From Promethearchaeia archaeon (GTDB taxonomy: Archaea > Asgardarchaeota > Lokiarchaeia > Sigyniarchaeales > SOKP01): a stretch of DNA of 32,000 bases. The number at the start of each line of letters is the position of its first letter. Position 1 is the first letter of the stretch. Below, in pieces: positions 11,252 to 18,267 of the stretch. The notes under the pieces were generated by a model. That model ran no database searches. It was given only the letters and a program-made list of their open reading frames with translations, and was not told the origin of the DNA. Location: positions 60,001 through 92,000 of the forward strand of contig JAWOFX010000007.1 of assembly GCA_046497275.1 (NCBI GenBank). The letters are read 5' to 3'. The position numbers and the translations under genes were made by a program.

Positions 11252-11383
11252 TTAATCATTGAAGGTAATAAACTTAGTAGGATCACATTTGGAGTCTTGT
11301 ATTGCAAATGTACAGAAAGCAATTTGATCTTCTATGAGTTCAAGAATTATTTCAGATTCAACTCCCTTTTGTTTTTTTTCCAT
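11252..11383 (-). CDS. Possible 43-aa ORF at the end of the DGC operon
   Basis: ATG at 11383 overlaps the end of the upstream DGC gene: MEKKQKGVESEIILELIEDQIAFCTFAIQDSKCDPTKFITFND. No recognised homology. Confidence 0.3.
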   Translation of the reverse strand: MEKKQKGVESEIILELIEDQIAFCTFAIQDSKCDPTKFITFND

Positions 11384-11789
11384 AAAACTCATCAACTTTT
11401 TGAGCAATCTCTTCCGCAATAATTTTTGCTAATTCTAATCCTTTTTCACCTAATCTTCGAGGATTTTCTGGAACTAATTCGGGATGACTGTCTATAAATT
11501 TCTTTACATTAATAGTTGCTGCGGGACTCCCGCTATATTGATCAACAGCAATTCTTGCACATTCTTCTTCGCAGCCCTCTATTGTTATAGTCGGGTGGTT
11601 TTTTGCAAAATCTCTTTCCTCTTGTCCACCATGTCTTTCTAACCCTCCTGCCATGAAAAGAGGTTGACACAAGATAATAGTATTATTGGGACGTAAATCC
11701 TCAACTACCATTCTTGCTGCTGCTCTTGTTAGAGTCCCTCCAACTAAATCCTCACCGCTACATGCGATAATTCCTACTTTCTTCTTCAT
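11358..11789 (-). CDS. DGC-domain putative Zn/metal-binding protein (paralog 3, EGC variant)
   Basis: IIACSG ... LCQP ... ITIEGCEEECA (four Cys); SD GAGGTGA upstream. Confidence 0.85.
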   Translation of the reverse strand: MKKKVGIIACSGEDLVGGTLTRAAARMVVEDLRPNNTIILCQPLFMAGGLERHGGQEERDFAKNHPTITIEGCEEECARIAVDQYSGSPAATINVKKFIDSHPELVPENPRRLGEKGLELAKIIAEEIAQKVDEFYGKKTKGS

Positions 11790-12209
11790 TTATTCATTCA
11801 CCTCACCATTTTCAAGTAATTTCTCTACTTTATTTGCTACTTTCTCAGCTAATTTTTGGGACAGCTTTTTGGTATTTTCCTCAATCGGTATTATTTTCTG
11901 TTCAGGCTTAAGATCTCGATTTTCTTTAATTACATCTATAGTCATAAAAGTTGCATCAACATTTCCCGCAGCTTCATTAATATCATTGTAAGAACATTTT
12001 AATGGACAACCGTCGATAGCAATGACATAATTTTCTTTTAATCGTTCAATTACTTCTTTTTTGCCTTTCACAATTAATGGTAAGCATTCGATTTCCGCTT
12101 TCCCTTTAGCCAATTCATCTACAACGATATAAGCAGCTTCTCTGCCAATACTGCCAAAAACCTTACCAATCCCACTACATGGGATAATATATACTTTTTT
12201 TTCATTCAT
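11790..12209 (-). CDS. DGC-domain putative Zn/metal-binding protein (paralog 2)
   Basis: IIPCSG ... ECLP ... IAIDGCPLKCS. Confidence 0.88.
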   Translation of the reverse strand: MNEKKVYIIPCSGIGKVFGSIGREAAYIVVDELAKGKAEIECLPLIVKGKKEVIERLKENYVIAIDGCPLKCSYNDINEAAGNVDATFMTIDVIKENRDLKPEQKIIPIEENTKKLSQKLAEKVANKVEKLLENGEVNE

Positions 12210-12214
12210 AATGA

Positions 12215-13090
12215 TCAATTTTCATCTTTATTTTGTCGACTTTCTTTTTCTGCTTTGTTTTTCATATAATTAAAATAATTTGTACCATTCATTACCAATT
12301 GTTTATCTTCCTCAAAATTCCTCAATTCAAGTTCTAAGAACCATCCTTGTTCATAAGGGTCTTGATTCATCAATTCTGGTGAATCTTCTAAGTTTCTATT
12401 AACATTAATAACTTTTCCAGATCCGGGAGAGATCAATTGTAAGACAGTTTTAGTCGACTCAAAACTCCCCACGTCGTCAAATTGTTCAATTTCTTTTCCA
12501 ATCTCTGGTAGATCTACAAATAAAATATCAGATGCTTTGTTCTGTAAGTAATCAGTTATCCCCATTAAAGCCGTGTCACCTTCAGGTTTAATCCAACAAT
12601 CATTTTCATTGAAAAAATATCCCTCTTTTGGAACCCTAAAATGATATTTATCGATTGTTGTTTTAAAGTATTCGATTTCTTCAAACTTCTTTTTAGTAAT
12701 AGACTTTTCTTTAGGTTTCTCTAATTCCTCAATAATACTTTTTACTATAGCATTAATCAAGTTCTTACCATCTTGGTTGAGAACTAAACCTGTTCCTGGC
12801 TTAAAATCAAATTTTTTGATCATATCTGGTATAAAAATCCTTTTAAATATTTTTTCCTCTCGCTCTTCAATTAAATCTGTAGCGCACCTTGTCATACATC
12901 CATCGATTACTAAGACTTTAGAATCCTCTACAATTTCTTCATATTTCTCATCCCCTCTGTTTAAAGACACAGGACAAACGATCTCTATTTCAGGTTTCTT
13001 TTCATTTAACTTCAATGCAACATTTCTTGCTATTACTCCCAATGATTTATCTAAACCATTACAAGGTAAAACACACAGTTTTTCTGTCAT
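12215..13090 (-). CDS. DGC domain fused to a glycine-cleavage-H-like lipoyl carrier
   Basis: N-term VLPCNG...VCP...VIDGCMTRCA. C-term YFFNENDCWIK..GDTALMGITDY..NKASDILFVDLP..G......VGSFESTKTVLQLISPGSGKVINVN.......LMNQDPYEQGW is GcvH-like, with the lipoyl Lys214 (12449-12451) intact. Confidence 0.92.
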   Translation of the reverse strand: MTEKLCVLPCNGLDKSLGVIARNVALKLNEKKPEIEIVCPVSLNRGDEKYEEIVEDSKVLVIDGCMTRCATDLIEEREEKIFKRIFIPDMIKKFDFKPGTGLVLNQDGKNLINAIVKSIIEELEKPKEKSITKKKFEEIEYFKTTIDKYHFRVPKEGYFFNENDCWIKPEGDTALMGITDYLQNKASDILFVDLPEIGKEIEQFDDVGSFESTKTVLQLISPGSGKVINVNRNLEDSPELMNQDPYEQGWFLELELRNFEEDKQLVMNGTNYFNYMKNKAEKESRQNKDEN

Positions 13091-13105
13091 ATTATATCGA
13101 CCCTA

Positions 13106-13405
13106 TTATTGACTATTTCTTAATTTTTTTATATATTCTTTAATTTCTGTTTTATCTGGGAAATCAAGGGCATCTGGAGAACAAGCCTTGGAACATGCTC
13201 TACAAAAAACGACACAATTATTAGGATTTTTAACTATCAATTGTTTTTCTTCTTGCTCTCGCACTTCGAATACATCATGAGGACAAAATTTTACACATTC
13301 CATACAATAATCGCATTTATCATAATCAATTCTGGGATACCAGTCTATCTTATTTCTTGGAACACCCATAAAGGTTTCAGTTTCAGAGTCATACTCTTTA
13401 CTCAT
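13106..13405 (-). CDS. 2x[4Fe-4S] ferredoxin-like protein
   Basis: CDYCMECVKFCP and CVVFCRACSKACSP. Confidence 0.92.
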   Translation of the reverse strand: MSKEYDSETETFMGVPRNKIDWYPRIDYDKCDYCMECVKFCPHDVFEVREQEEKQLIVKNPNNCVVFCRACSKACSPDALDFPDKTEIKEYIKKLRNSQ

Positions 13406-13790
13406 CTTTTTTCTCCTCCTCTAATTCTTTCAATGTTTTTTCTACTAAATCTACAGCTTCTTGGGTGCTCATTTCTCTAATATCTAAAGGAATAAGATCT
13501 TTTTTAACATCAAGACCTACATTTTTAAAGGCATCTCTAAAAAGCTTGTATTGCATATTAGGAGCGCACCCTCCTACAATATATTTTCGACCAGGACGTA
13601 AAAAATCCTCCAAAAAGCGGTCTCCATCTTCCTCACAAAGTTGTGGATGTATAAAACCATATTCAACGGGTAGCTCAATACGAACTTGGTTTATAAAATC
13701 CCAAATATCCATTTTCGCAAATCCTGGGCATTTTCCTGTACAGACACACATTATAAAACCTACTTTTTTATCTTTCGATTCAATACTCAT
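13398..13790 (-). CDS. Stand-alone HdrA N-terminal-domain-like Fe-S protein
   Basis: KVGFIMCVCTGKC, HPQLCEEDG, YIVGGCAP, LDIRE parallel the HdrA N-terminal CxC / LC / ACSP / NIRE pattern; no FAD domain follows. Confidence 0.78.
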   Translation of the reverse strand: MSIESKDKKVGFIMCVCTGKCPGFAKMDIWDFINQVRIELPVEYGFIHPQLCEEDGDRFLEDFLRPGRKYIVGGCAPNMQYKLFRDAFKNVGLDVKKDLIPLDIREMSTQEAVDLVEKTLKELEEEKKDE

Positions 13791-13878
13791 CAAAAATCAC
13801 TCAGCTTTTCTTTTTTTTATGGAAATAATTATTTTTAATAAAATCACAAGATTTATATTATATATTCGTTTATAAATA

Positions 13879-13904
13879 TATGTATTAAAACGCATAAATG
13901 CATA
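13879..13904. promoter_or_regulatory. Imperfect inverted repeat in the divergent promoter, candidate ArsR operator
   Basis: TATGTATT-N10-AATGCATA, containing GCATAAATGC, directly upstream of arsR. The AT-rich context weakens it. Confidence 0.35.
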
Positions 13905-13925
13905 AAAATTATTAGTTTGATTAAA

Positions 13926-14246
13926 ATGGAAATTGATGATTTAAGATTGGAAGTTTTAAAAGCATTATCAGATGAAACAAGGTTAAAATTATTAGATTAT
14001 TTGAAACATGGAGAAGAGATATGTGTTTGTGAAATTGAAAGAGATTTCGACAAATCTCAATCTACATTATCGCGTCATTTAAAAACTCTCGAAGATGCAG
14101 ATATAATTAAGAGTCGAAAAGTGGGGATAAAAAAGTTTTTTAGTATAAAAGATACTCAGGTTTTTAAAATATTAGCGGTAATTGATAATCTAATTAAAAG
14201 AAATAAAAAATATGAAAAAATTATTGAAATTCAGCAATCATTATAA
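13926..14246 (+). CDS. arsR: ArsR/SmtB repressor, As(III)-sensing CVC type
   Basis: KALSDETRL, EICVCEI, SQSTLSRHLKTL. Confidence 0.92.
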   Translation: MEIDDLRLEVLKALSDETRLKLLDYLKHGEEICVCEIERDFDKSQSTLSRHLKTLEDADIIKSRKVGIKKFFSIKDTQVFKILAVIDNLIKRNKKYEKIIEIQQSL

Positions 14247-16662: not shown

Positions 16663-17811
16663 ATGAATGAACAAAACAGTGAAAAAAAATGGGTTTGTCC
16701 TGAATGCGGACACGTTCACTATTACGAAGGTGCCCCACCGGATGAGTGTGTCAAATGTGGTGGGGGATTAGAGCTTTTCGACAGATTTCTCCCATTATGG
16801 ATCGCAATCTGTATAATAATTGGGCTACTACTTTCTCAATTTGTACCTAGAATCGGCGAAGTGATTGATTCTTGGCAAATCGGAGGGATTTCCGTTCCAA
16901 TCGGTATCTGTTTATTTCTAATGATGTATCCCGCAATGTTAAATCTTAAAAGTTCTGAGATTAAAAAGTTAGGGCAGAATCCAAAACCCATAATTCTCTC
17001 TCTTCTTTCAAACTGGATAGTCGCGCCCTTTGTGGGTTTGTCAATGGCACTGCTCTTTTTAGGAGGTAATCCACAGTTAGTACTTGCTGTAATATTACTA
17101 TCTAGTAGTCCATGCACTGCAATGGTATTAGTATGGGGCTGGTTGGCTAAGGGAAATCAAGAGCAAAATGTCATAACAACAAGTTTGAACACAGTTACGA
17201 TAATCTTTTTTTATATACCGATGGTTTATTTCTTAGTTACTCTGGCAAATCTTACATTAACAGAACCAATACCCTTAGATGTCTTCCAATTACTAATTTC
17301 ATTGGTGGTTTTTATAGGGTTACCACTGGCATTAGGGTTAGCAAGTAGAAAAACTCTAATTAATGCTAAAGGAGAATTGTGGTTTGATGAAACATATCGT
17401 CCCGCAGTCGGTAAGGTCGCGATCCTAGCGCTTTTGATGACATTGATTATTCTATTCTCATTAAATGGAGATGTTTTAATTAACAATCCCCTTCTATTAC
17501 TTCTAGTCACAACTCCATTGCTTGTTGGATTTGCTATTGTCGTTGGATATAACATTCTAGTTACTAGATTGGTAAAATTAAGATACAGACAAGCGATCAT
17601 TACAGTAATTATTGGCTCATCCAGTCATTTTGAAATTGCTATTGCTGTTGCAGTTGCGATGCATGGGGTTGGTTCGATTACAGCTTTAGGTACTACGATG
17701 GGTTTGTTTTGGGAAGTACCCGTGATGCTTTCATTGGTATATTTGGGCAGATATCTTGGAAGACGTGGTTATTGGAAAGGTTATGAAGAAGCAATAACAA
17801 AATATTCATAA
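16663..17811 (+). CDS. acr3: ACR3 arsenite/antimonite efflux transporter with N-terminal rubredoxin-like domain
   Basis: DRFLPLWI, LMMYPAM, SSPCTAMVLVW (conserved Cys), SSHFEIAIAVA, EVPVMLSLV; N-term WVCPECGHVHYYEGAPPDECVKCG. Confidence 0.93.
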   Translation: MNEQNSEKKWVCPECGHVHYYEGAPPDECVKCGGGLELFDRFLPLWIAICIIIGLLLSQFVPRIGEVIDSWQIGGISVPIGICLFLMMYPAMLNLKSSEIKKLGQNPKPIILSLLSNWIVAPFVGLSMALLFLGGNPQLVLAVILLSSSPCTAMVLVWGWLAKGNQEQNVITTSLNTVTIIFFYIPMVYFLVTLANLTLTEPIPLDVFQLLISLVVFIGLPLALGLASRKTLINAKGELWFDETYRPAVGKVAILALLMTLIILFSLNGDVLINNPLLLLLVTTPLLVGFAIVVGYNILVTRLVKLRYRQAIITVIIGSSSHFEIAIAVAVAMHGVGSITALGTTMGLFWEVPVMLSLVYLGRYLGRRGYWKGYEEAITKYS

Positions 17812-17862: not shown

Positions 17863-18267
17863 ATGAAGCAACAAAAAAAACGAGAAATTATCAATAGTCT
17901 TAGGTTGTGTAAGGATTTATCTGATAAGGCTTTAGAGAATTATTTTGAAAATCTACGTAAAATAGGAAAGAATTTTACAAAAGATAACATGCTAAAAAAT
18001 CTTGAAAAATTCTTTACTATTCTTGGAAATGACACGAGATTAATAATCTTGAAGTTATTGAGTCAGAATGATTATTGCGTCTGTGAATTGGAAGCAATCT
18101 TGGATAAAGCTCAATCATCTGTCTCACATCATTTAAGATTGCTTGAAAAAGCGGGACTAATTAGAGGTATAAAAAAAGGTTATTTTACACATTACGAAAT
18201 TATAAATGAAAATTTTGAAAAATTTTTTAGATATTTATATGAGCAATACCCCTTCCTTAAGGATTAA
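17863..18267 (+). CDS. arsR: ArsR/SmtB repressor, CVC type, with N-terminal extension
   Basis: LGNDTRLIIL, DYCVCEL, AQSSVSHHLRLLE. Confidence 0.9.
   Translation: MKQQKKREIINSLRLCKDLSDKALENYFENLRKIGKNFTKDNMLKNLEKFFTILGNDTRLIILKLLSQNDYCVCELEAILDKAQSSVSHHLRLLEKAGLIRGIKKGYFTHYEIINENFEKFFRYLYEQYPFLKD

Follow-up and report, generated by a model that had tools for sequence, protein, structure and literature searches.

A DGC-GcvH fusion protein in an ArsR-linked Fe-S gene module of Asgard archaea and anaerobic bacteria: a candidate lipoyl-dithiol system acting on arsenic

The gene analysed here lies in a stretch of 32,000 nucleotides from a Promethearchaeia archaeon (assembly GCA_046497275.1, contig JAWOFX010000007.1, positions 60,001-92,000), hereafter the window, to which all coordinates refer. 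It encodes the fusion of a DGC domain with a GcvH-like lipoyl carrier domain and is the third gene of a tight five-gene operon on the minus strand, preceded by a 131-amino-acid HdrA-N-like protein and a ferredoxin and followed by two further DGC proteins. This gene set is shared between Asgard archaea and bacteria, and its genomic context, as read from gene sequences, names arsenic. The reading we favour, with a probability of about one half, is that of an ArsR-controlled five-protein module with the fusion as its hub, in which a lipoyl dithiol and an Fe-S relay would act on arsenic.

A DGC domain joined to an altered H-protein domain

By Pfam, residues 6-92 of the fusion protein form a DGC domain (E 2.5e-16, 60 bits, cut-off 27), covering positions 1-87 of the 106 positions of the profile, and residues 159-278 a GCV_H domain (E 1.9e-33, 115 bits, cut-off 22.2). 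An earlier note on this DNA had described four DGC cysteines (Cys10, Cys39, Cys65 and Cys69), a charged linker followed by an H-protein domain, and an ES-T-K214-T motif. All are present in the translation as stated: the linker is rich in Lys and Glu and contains one long helix (residues 106-124 in the model), and the lipoyl hairpin reads E211-S212-T213-K214-T215. Two further cysteines had gone unmentioned, namely Cys6 in the DGC part, which is not conserved among relatives, and Cys165 in the H-protein part. An AlphaFold2 model built from 41 relatives (mean predicted local distance difference test score, pLDDT, of 89) comprises a beta-alpha-beta domain, the long linker helix and the H-protein domain, with a predicted template modelling score (pTM) of 0.59, at which the relative placement of the two domains is unsure.

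The H-protein domain superimposes on the pea H-protein 1dxm (VIA-align Z 22.4, root-mean-square deviation 1.1, 131 residues), matches 1onl in Foldseek (TMt 0.93) and is about 50% identical to Thermus GcvH over the aligned stretch. Together with a score just above the threshold of the NCBIfam model PRK01202 (117.8 versus 117), this identity would fit an ordinary glycine-cleavage H-protein carrying a structural zinc domain, each domain acting independently. However, the domain stays under the TIGR00527 equivalog cut-off (113.7 versus 115.85 bits), and the Glu-His-Glu residues that hold the lipoyl arm are replaced. While the arm of the E. coli H-protein rests in its cavity, its aminomethyl group forms hydrogen bonds with Glu12 and Glu14, and one of its sulfurs is in contact with His13 (PMC7733448). 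In the alignment, these three positions correspond to Asn163, Asp164 and Cys165 of the fusion, all invariant across the 77 members apart from one tyrosine at position 165.

Neither gcvT nor gcvP was found among the scanned ORFs (open reading frames) of the window or among the neighbour families that recur at the other loci, and a normal gcvT-gcvH-gcvP set, whose gcvH has the SHEW sequence, is present on another contig of the same genome, together with a third H-like gene. Given the changed pocket residues and this normal set elsewhere, the H domain, judged by its own features, is not a working glycine-cleavage H-protein; at the sequence level, the fusion fails two features that define GcvH proper. 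As the fusion partner and the operon are also fixed across two domains of life, we regard an ordinary H-protein as highly improbable.

Distribution and conservation of the fusion

The fusion also occurs in other genomes; the earlier note had allowed for its being confined to this assembly. A protein search returned more than 120 clusters sharing its length and both Pfam domains at 49-81% identity, and nearly all of the named clusters are from Asgard archaea (Promethearchaeia/Lokiarchaeota, Thor-, Jord-, Heimdall- and Hermodarchaeota). In pattern-selected stretches of a collection with one genome per species, 153 places encode a relative of the fusion. The best 80, in which the fusion gene is whole, were kept as loci, 34 of them archaeal-type and 46 bacterial. 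Cultured bacteria with the fusion, at 40-47% identity over the full length, include several Acetobacterium species, Clostridium ljungdahlii, Eubacterium callanderi, Moorella, Caloramator fervidus and Ca. Formimonas warabiya. Among these best 80 of 153 places, it also occurs in metagenome-assembled genomes of Actinomycetota and Desulfotomaculia, besides those of Asgard archaea.

In 77 full-length relatives, residues C10, C65, C69, E211, S212 and K214 are invariant, C39 is kept in 71, and C165 in all except the sequence with the tyrosine (76 of 77). Since C10, C65, C69 and K214 are invariant in relatives from two domains of life, the residue pattern is not a matter of chance. In a tree of the 77 proteins, a single branch parts 34 Asgard-type from 43 bacterial sequences (Shimodaira-Hasegawa-like approximate likelihood ratio test, SH-aLRT, 96). 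Asgard-type copies, 51-67% identical, were also seen on contigs filed as Nanopelagicaceae (locus L012), Deferrimicrobium (L031) and Bathyarchaeia (L037); these contigs are probably mis-binned, their copies falling within the Asgard side of the tree.

Unfused H-proteins of the NDCW type were almost absent from a search of shorter proteins in the protein collection. This search gave one NDCW protein of 155 amino acids on a 613-bp contig, probably a cut gene, and one NDVW protein, the others being ordinary GcvH with HEW, HTW or HVW. The wide occurrence of the fusion identifies it, on sequence evidence, as a stable and ancient architecture and not as an assembly oddity.

A fixed five-gene operon

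Genes 1 and 2 of the operon overlap by 8 nt, genes 2 and 3 are separated by 15 nt, genes 3 and 4 overlap by 4 nt, and genes 4 and 5 abut directly. The same five-gene order was read directly in nine loci, from Loki-, Jord- and Heimdallarchaeota, C. ljungdahlii, Acetobacterium, Ca. Formimonas, Moorella and Caloramator. Scored by position, 75 loci have a DGC gene in both positions after the fusion. For each operon partner, between 78 and 85 of the 85 sources have a relative (83 for the ferredoxin), and the gaps fall on short or cut contigs. The second and third DGC proteins form separate orthologue groups, both maintained from archaea to bacteria: the second is conserved in 75 loci, and the third is marked by an invariant G..ER.FA stretch. 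A look-up of the second DGC protein in a protein atlas gave no usable match. All four DGC domains of the genome are confined to this cluster, one of them in a protein encoded outside the operon on the plus strand.

The fusion described in the earlier note is real; that note took it alone and left out the fixed five-gene set to which it belongs, including two Fe-S proteins and another two DGC proteins. By word match in an index of public sequencing runs, 12 RNA-labelled salt-lake metatranscriptome runs from three studies share up to 0.83 of the sampled words of positions 11358-14246.

The Fe-S partner and the DGC fold

The profile of the 131-residue protein matches HdrA residues 5-93 in 7bkb (E 1e-4) with the cysteine ligands aligned, and a Foldseek search with its model gave HdrA chains in all of the top seven places. 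Of its five invariant cysteines, four align with HdrA and one is additional. Its sequences from Asgard archaea and Firmicutes share 60-83% identity, versus 31-47% for its operon partners and 31-40% for the DGC proteins. By profile and predicted fold, this protein is a free copy of the HdrA N-terminal [4Fe-4S] domain.

In 25 DGC domains, the four cysteines and both glycines are invariant, with the motif G64-C65 in the fusion. The DGC model is a flavodoxin-like alpha/beta sandwich in which one cysteine closely follows each of strands 1, 2 and 3 and the fourth opens the next helix. Its best solved match is 3pu6, an uncharacterised Wolinella protein (Z 9.6, root-mean-square deviation 2.9, 112 residues); the remaining matches have Z values of at most 8, the background level for this fold class. 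Chains of DsrE, TusD and YchN are absent from the 50 best fold matches, and a DsrE query did not retrieve 3pu6. Sequence searches of the PDB with the DGC domain alone or with the 25-sequence DGC profile matched no chain.

Profile-profile comparison of the DGC domain with the HdrA-N-like protein gave a weak match (probability 37%, E 3.6e-4) in which the cysteines after strands 1 and 3 are aligned. This suggests that the DGC cysteines may carry an Fe-S cluster and not the zinc assumed by database names. To call the four cysteines a metal site, as the earlier note did, was to overstate the case: zinc, an Fe-S cluster and As(III) may each be compatible with them, the weak HdrA-N match hinting at Fe-S. 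A paper on 'putative zinc-binding proteins' of M. mazei was set aside as a source on DGC, as it deals with different proteins.

The presence of three DGC orthologue groups in fixed order recalls hetero-oligomers such as DsrEFH and TusBCD. Prediction of a complex of the three DGC domains gave an interaction score (ipSAE, interaction prediction score from aligned errors) of 0.43 (0.43, 0.59 and 0.32 in the individual runs), against 0.02 for the best control; the runs agree in at least 87% of contacts, with partner pLDDT of at least 78. In the calibration, passes with a score of 0.60 or less comprised 7 of 80 solved complexes and both of the mismatched pairs that passed (2 of 110). As this is weak support, no complex of the three DGC domains is claimed.

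Lipoate enzymes beside the module

A lipoate-protein ligase of the LplA type is encoded in the window, and a lipoate ligase lies within 10 kb of the fusion in 23 of the 80 loci, this one included. The window enzyme is 57, 56 and 40% identical to module-adjacent ligases of three archaeal-type loci, 29-38% identical to the module-linked ligases of bacteria, and 36% identical to the other LplA of its own genome. In several bacteria (L090, L076 and others), the ligase gene directly follows the third DGC gene, the L090 enzyme scoring 356 bits with TIGR00545 (cut-off 280). Dihydrolipoyl dehydrogenase (Lpd) is encoded nearby in 19 of the 46 bacterial loci (TIGR01350, 496-532 bits, cut-off 408.8). Ca. 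Formimonas (L090) and Caloramator (L076) carry the entire series on a single strand, in the order Lpd, 131-residue protein, ferredoxin, fusion, DGC, DGC, LplA, with ArsR and ACR3 alongside.

The lipoyl part looks functional from these sequences, given the invariance of K214, the ligase in the window or after the operon, and the true Lpd before the operon in bacteria; it also looks specialised. As a separate observation, an 871-residue protein combining E2 (lipoyl, E3-binding and catalytic) and E3 (Pyr_redox) parts adjoins the ligase of a Lokiarchaeial locus, 5 kb from the module (L008:2525-5140).

Arsenic genes around the module

All ORFs within 10 kb of the fusion in the 80 loci were clustered, and the recurrent families were annotated by Pfam or NCBIfam. 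An ArsR-type regulator is present in 62 of the 80 loci, the ACR3 arsenite pump in 24, an LMWPc-type (ArsC-like) protein in 15, ArsA in 13, ArsD in 12 and ArsP in 9. At least one of the five structural families (ACR3, ArsA, ArsD, LMWPc-type, ArsP) occurs in 41 loci, 12 of the 34 archaeal-type and 29 of the 46 bacterial ones. Linkage by chance would be around 1%, a rough estimate and not a computed control, for a 20-kb stretch in a genome of 3-4 Mb with one or two ars loci. Nearly all ArsR proteins encoded within 2.5 kb of the fusion have a CxC motif, mostly the CVC of the arsenite type.

In the window itself, a divergent ArsR with an ICVCEI motif is encoded next to the operon, and an ACR3 transporter and a second ArsR with a YCVCEL motif lie further on (Table 1). 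The N-terminus of this ACR3 (16663-16770, plus strand) has an extra zinc-ribbon-like CxxC...CxxC before the first membrane helix, with a weak rubredoxin-like match (PF21349, E 0.001). Elsewhere, the genome has four LMWPc-type genes and no PF03960 ArsC; a role of the module as arsenate reductase, argued from the missing ArsC, was rejected in view of those four genes.

The earlier note had proposed that DGC domains exchange electrons or metal(loid) with lipoamide. The gene context supplies the metalloid, arsenic, and leaves a metal at the four cysteines unsupported. The fusion is not the first functional clue to the DGC family, as that note thought it could be: a preprint had already mentioned, in passing, a DGC gene in an ars operon of P. 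mercurii ND132, arsR5-arsP-arsE-DGC (bioRxiv 10.1101/2022.10.17.512643). Literature searches on DGC/PF08859, on GcvH with ars genes and on lipoate with arsenic found no description of the module, nor of any ars operon component using lipoate, ferredoxin or an HdrA-like Fe-S protein.

Alternatively, the module might carry sulfane sulfur, or reduce a persulfide or disulfide, in the manner of sHdr-LbpA with its DsrE-type carriers, and its ArsR-type regulators might sense persulfide instead of arsenic. The sHdr-LbpA system, reportedly described by Cao and colleagues in 2018, is said to comprise a GcvH-like lipoate-binding protein, its own ligase, an Hdr-like Fe-S complex and the ArsR-type regulator sHdrR, a logic much like that of the module. 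One Jordarchaeial locus has DsrE, DsrE, DsrH and a TauE exporter within 8 kb, and a cysteine desulfurase is found near the module in 13 bacterial loci. Yet the CVC motif of the ArsR proteins within 2.5 kb is typical of As(III) sensing, and the enriched neighbours are ACR3, ArsA, ArsD, LMWPc-type proteins and ArsP, not Sox, Dsr or HdrB/C. No HdrB/C family was found among the scanned window ORFs or the ten annotated recurrent neighbour families, and, a weak point, DsrE-family structures lie outside the 50 best fold matches of the DGC domain. A sulfur relay is, in our view, quite unlikely.

A possible mechanism and its alternatives

Arsenite is bound by vicinal dithiols, dihydrolipoamide among them, with a preference for coordination by three sulfurs. 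In the mechanism that we propose, the nearby LplA-type ligase would attach lipoate to Lys214, and the lipoyl disulfide would be reduced to the dithiol. As the gene content suggests, electrons in this archaeon would pass from the ferredoxin to the HdrA-N-like [4Fe-4S] protein and perhaps on to the DGC sites; in many bacteria, further electrons would come from NADH through the dihydrolipoyl dehydrogenase encoded before the operon. The dithiol, the pocket Cys165 and the four-cysteine sites of the three DGC proteins could then bind arsenic species, reduce them, or both, the substrate being either As(III), or As(V) or an organoarsenical that ends as an As(III)-thiolate. The two lipoyl sulfurs and Cys165 would form a three-sulfur As(III) site at the place where H-proteins park their arm. 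The arsenic would finally be handed on for export to ACR3, or to ArsA/ArsD or ArsP in bacteria. Since the three Fe-S clusters speak for a consumption of electrons, a reductive step or a continual re-reduction of the carrier is favoured over a pure chaperone.

Several points weigh against a module acting on arsenic. First, 39 of the 80 loci have no classical ars structural gene within 10 kb, many of these contigs being short. Secondly, comparison of the operon promoter region with the region upstream of acr3 revealed no shared operator, only AT-rich palindromes. Thirdly, As(III) passes from thiol to thiol without any need of electrons, and a pure chaperone leaves the three Fe-S clusters unexplained. 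A reductase, in turn, would be partly redundant with the LMWPc-type genes, which are present in 15 bacterial loci and in four copies elsewhere in this genome. Finally, instead of reacting with arsenic, the DGC cysteines may be occupied by an Fe-S cluster or zinc.

The same genes could also serve to protect lipoate metabolism. The fusion might serve as an extra lipoyl protein, induced by arsenic and mopping up As(III), or the module might be a ferredoxin:lipoyl-protein oxidoreductase, with an Fe-S cluster in DGC, that re-reduces or frees poisoned lipoyl groups. Lipoyl proteins are the classic target of As(III), and this genome has genuine ones in need of protection, in its gcvT-H-P set. The obligatory partnership of two Fe-S proteins fits such a role, as do the strand-cysteine layout shared by the DGC and HdrA-N-like domains and their weak profile match. 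For a decoy, however, there would be no need to maintain three DGC paralogues, each as an orthologue group of its own, in both archaea and bacteria, or to alter the pocket and place a near-invariant new cysteine, Cys165, in it, and Fe-S binding by DGC is itself a supposition from sequence. We consider protection or repair rather unlikely. The probability left by the four readings (action on arsenic, protection or repair, sulfur relay and ordinary H-protein) goes to something else.

Lipoate serves five classical enzyme systems as a cofactor and has lately been recognised in sHdr sulfur oxidation as well; it is also the textbook target of arsenite. If the module does act on arsenic, a dedicated lipoyl protein, ligase and reductase under an arsenic sensor would turn the target of arsenic into a tool. 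For strict anaerobes, to which glutathione-based routes are not available, it would represent a new class of ars genes. The DGC family, the free HdrA N-terminal domain and the gene set as a whole would thereby gain a testable function in genetically tractable model acetogens. The Asgard archaea, for their part, have here a gene set whose tree parts an Asgard-type from a bacterial group in one split. The strongest form of the proposal holds that lipoic acid is a working cofactor of a new arsenic-handling complex in Asgard archaea and anaerobic bacteria such as acetogens: a dithiol machine driven by ferredoxin, NADH or both, which would reduce or capture arsenicals at a three-sulfur site and hand them to the pump through a DGC relay. 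In that case the DGC family (PF08859) would receive its first function and would turn out to be a relative of the HdrA N-terminal Fe-S domain. We advance this form tentatively, as a possibility to be doubted more than assumed.

Comparison with known systems

With GcvH (PF01597, TIGR00527), the fusion shares the H-protein fold, the E-S-x-K lipoyl-lysine hairpin and the identity to the Thermus protein given above. It differs by its fusion to DGC, by the Asn-Asp-Cys pocket, by an Fe-S/DGC operon beside ars genes and by the lack of a link to gcvT or gcvP.

By analogy, the closest to the module in mode of action would be two non-classical relays with a lipoyl carrier, sHdr-LbpA and Lpd-DlaT-AhpD. 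Like sHdr-LbpA, the module combines a GcvH-like carrier outside the classical lipoate enzymes with a nearby ligase of the LplA type, an Fe-S part derived from Hdr and a regulator of the ArsR family. In contrast to that system, it has, among the window ORFs and neighbour families scanned, neither HdrB/C CCG domains nor a full HdrA flavoprotein, only a free protein corresponding to the N-terminal Fe-S domain of HdrA, and is therefore not a member of the sHdr family. Moreover, DGC proteins take the place of DsrE3/TusA, the neighbours are arsenic and not sulfur genes, and the hosts are strict anaerobes instead of sulfur oxidisers.

In the Lpd-DlaT-AhpD-AhpC system of Mycobacterium tuberculosis, electrons flow from NADH through dihydrolipoyl dehydrogenase and protein-bound lipoamide to a cysteine protein for detoxification. 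The module, known here from its genes, would likewise be a lipoamide relay devoted to detoxification instead of 2-oxoacid metabolism. An E2 lipoyl domain, AhpD/AhpC and peroxide are involved there, whereas an H-protein domain, DGC and Fe-S proteins and an arsenic context are found here.

Classical ars operons (ArsR, ACR3/ArsB, ArsC with thioredoxin or glutaredoxin, ArsD-ArsA) have in common with the module the CVC regulator, the ACR3 pump and a cysteine-based chemistry, and the module occupies the place of their accessory thiol-redox genes. Lipoate, a ferredoxin and an HdrA-like Fe-S protein, found in none of the ars operons described in the literature searched, set it apart from them.

Table 1. 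Features of the module and its surroundings in the window
Feature	Position	Strand	Evidence or remark
Operon gene 1: stand-alone HdrA-N-terminal-like [4Fe-4S] protein, 131 aa, five invariant Cys	13398..13793	-	Profile and fold match to HdrA
Operon gene 2: ferredoxin, 99 aa, two [4Fe-4S] motifs	13106..13405	-	Pfam Fer4 family
Operon gene 3: DGC::GcvH fusion protein, 291 aa	12215..13090	-	Open ORF, ATG start
DGC domain and its C-terminal helix, residues 1-125	12716..13090	-	Flavodoxin-like alpha/beta fold in model
Cys10 codon	13061-13063	-	DGC domain
Cys39 codon	12974-12976	-	DGC domain
Cys65 codon	12896-12898	-	DGC domain
Cys69 codon	12884-12886	-	DGC domain
H-protein (lipoyl carrier) domain, residues 141-283	12242..12670	-	Structure match to pea H-protein
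Asn163-Asp164-Cys165 pocket codons	12596-12604	-	
Putative lipoyl Lys214 codon	12449-12451	-	
Operon gene 4: second DGC protein, 142 aa	11790..12218	-	Pfam DGC E 1.2e-15; start overlaps fusion stop by 4 nt
Operon gene 5: third DGC protein, 143 aa	11358..11789	-	Pfam DGC E 7.5e-11
Divergent ArsR-type regulator, ICVCEI motif	13917..14246	+	Pfam HTH_5 E 2.3e-16
Protein with CAC motif, 96 aa	14258..14548	+	No known family; between ArsR and fourth DGC
Fourth DGC protein, 157 aa	14550..15023	+	Pfam DGC E 8.3e-13; outside operon
Protein ending Gly-Cys, 121 aa	16130-16495	-	No known family
ACR3 arsenite efflux transporter	16663..17811	+	TIGR00832 287.7 bits, cut-off 282.8; 3.6 kb from the fusion gene
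Second ArsR, YCVCEL motif	17863..18267	+	Pfam HTH_5 E 2e-17; after ACR3
Lipoate-protein ligase catalytic subunit (LplA type), 253 aa	18993..19754	+	Pfam LplA-B_cat E 1.7e-50
Radical-SAM protein, 387 aa	26523-27686	+	

Other genes near the module

The 96-residue CAC protein has no Pfam or NCBIfam match. Its relatives, found in 22 sources by blastp and in 19 loci by clustering, are all Asgard-type, and it may substitute for the thioredoxin-like gene seen beside DGC in a bacterial ars operon. The 121-residue protein with the Gly-Cys terminus is encoded close to the module in 13 Asgard-type loci.

The radical-SAM (S-adenosylmethionine) protein of the window clusters by BLAST with radical-SAM/SPASM genes that adjoin the module in nine other loci, directly upstream of it in L062. 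As radical-SAM proteins cluster easily, its link to the module is unsure.

In 15 archaeal-type loci, this window not being one of them, a DUF166 protein with a weak match to the DfsP selenoprotein model is encoded beside the module (for example L008:6519-7250 and L030:3201-3914). In Acetobacterium and Eubacterium, two genes are found just after the module: one for a 179-residue PF04060 Fe-S protein, a family also present in the gamma subunit of carbon monoxide dehydrogenase/acetyl-CoA synthase and seen in 20 bacterial loci, and one for the class-V cysteine desulfurase of the 13 bacterial loci counted above (positions L050:11744-12283, L054:11855-13545 and L088:12364-14057).

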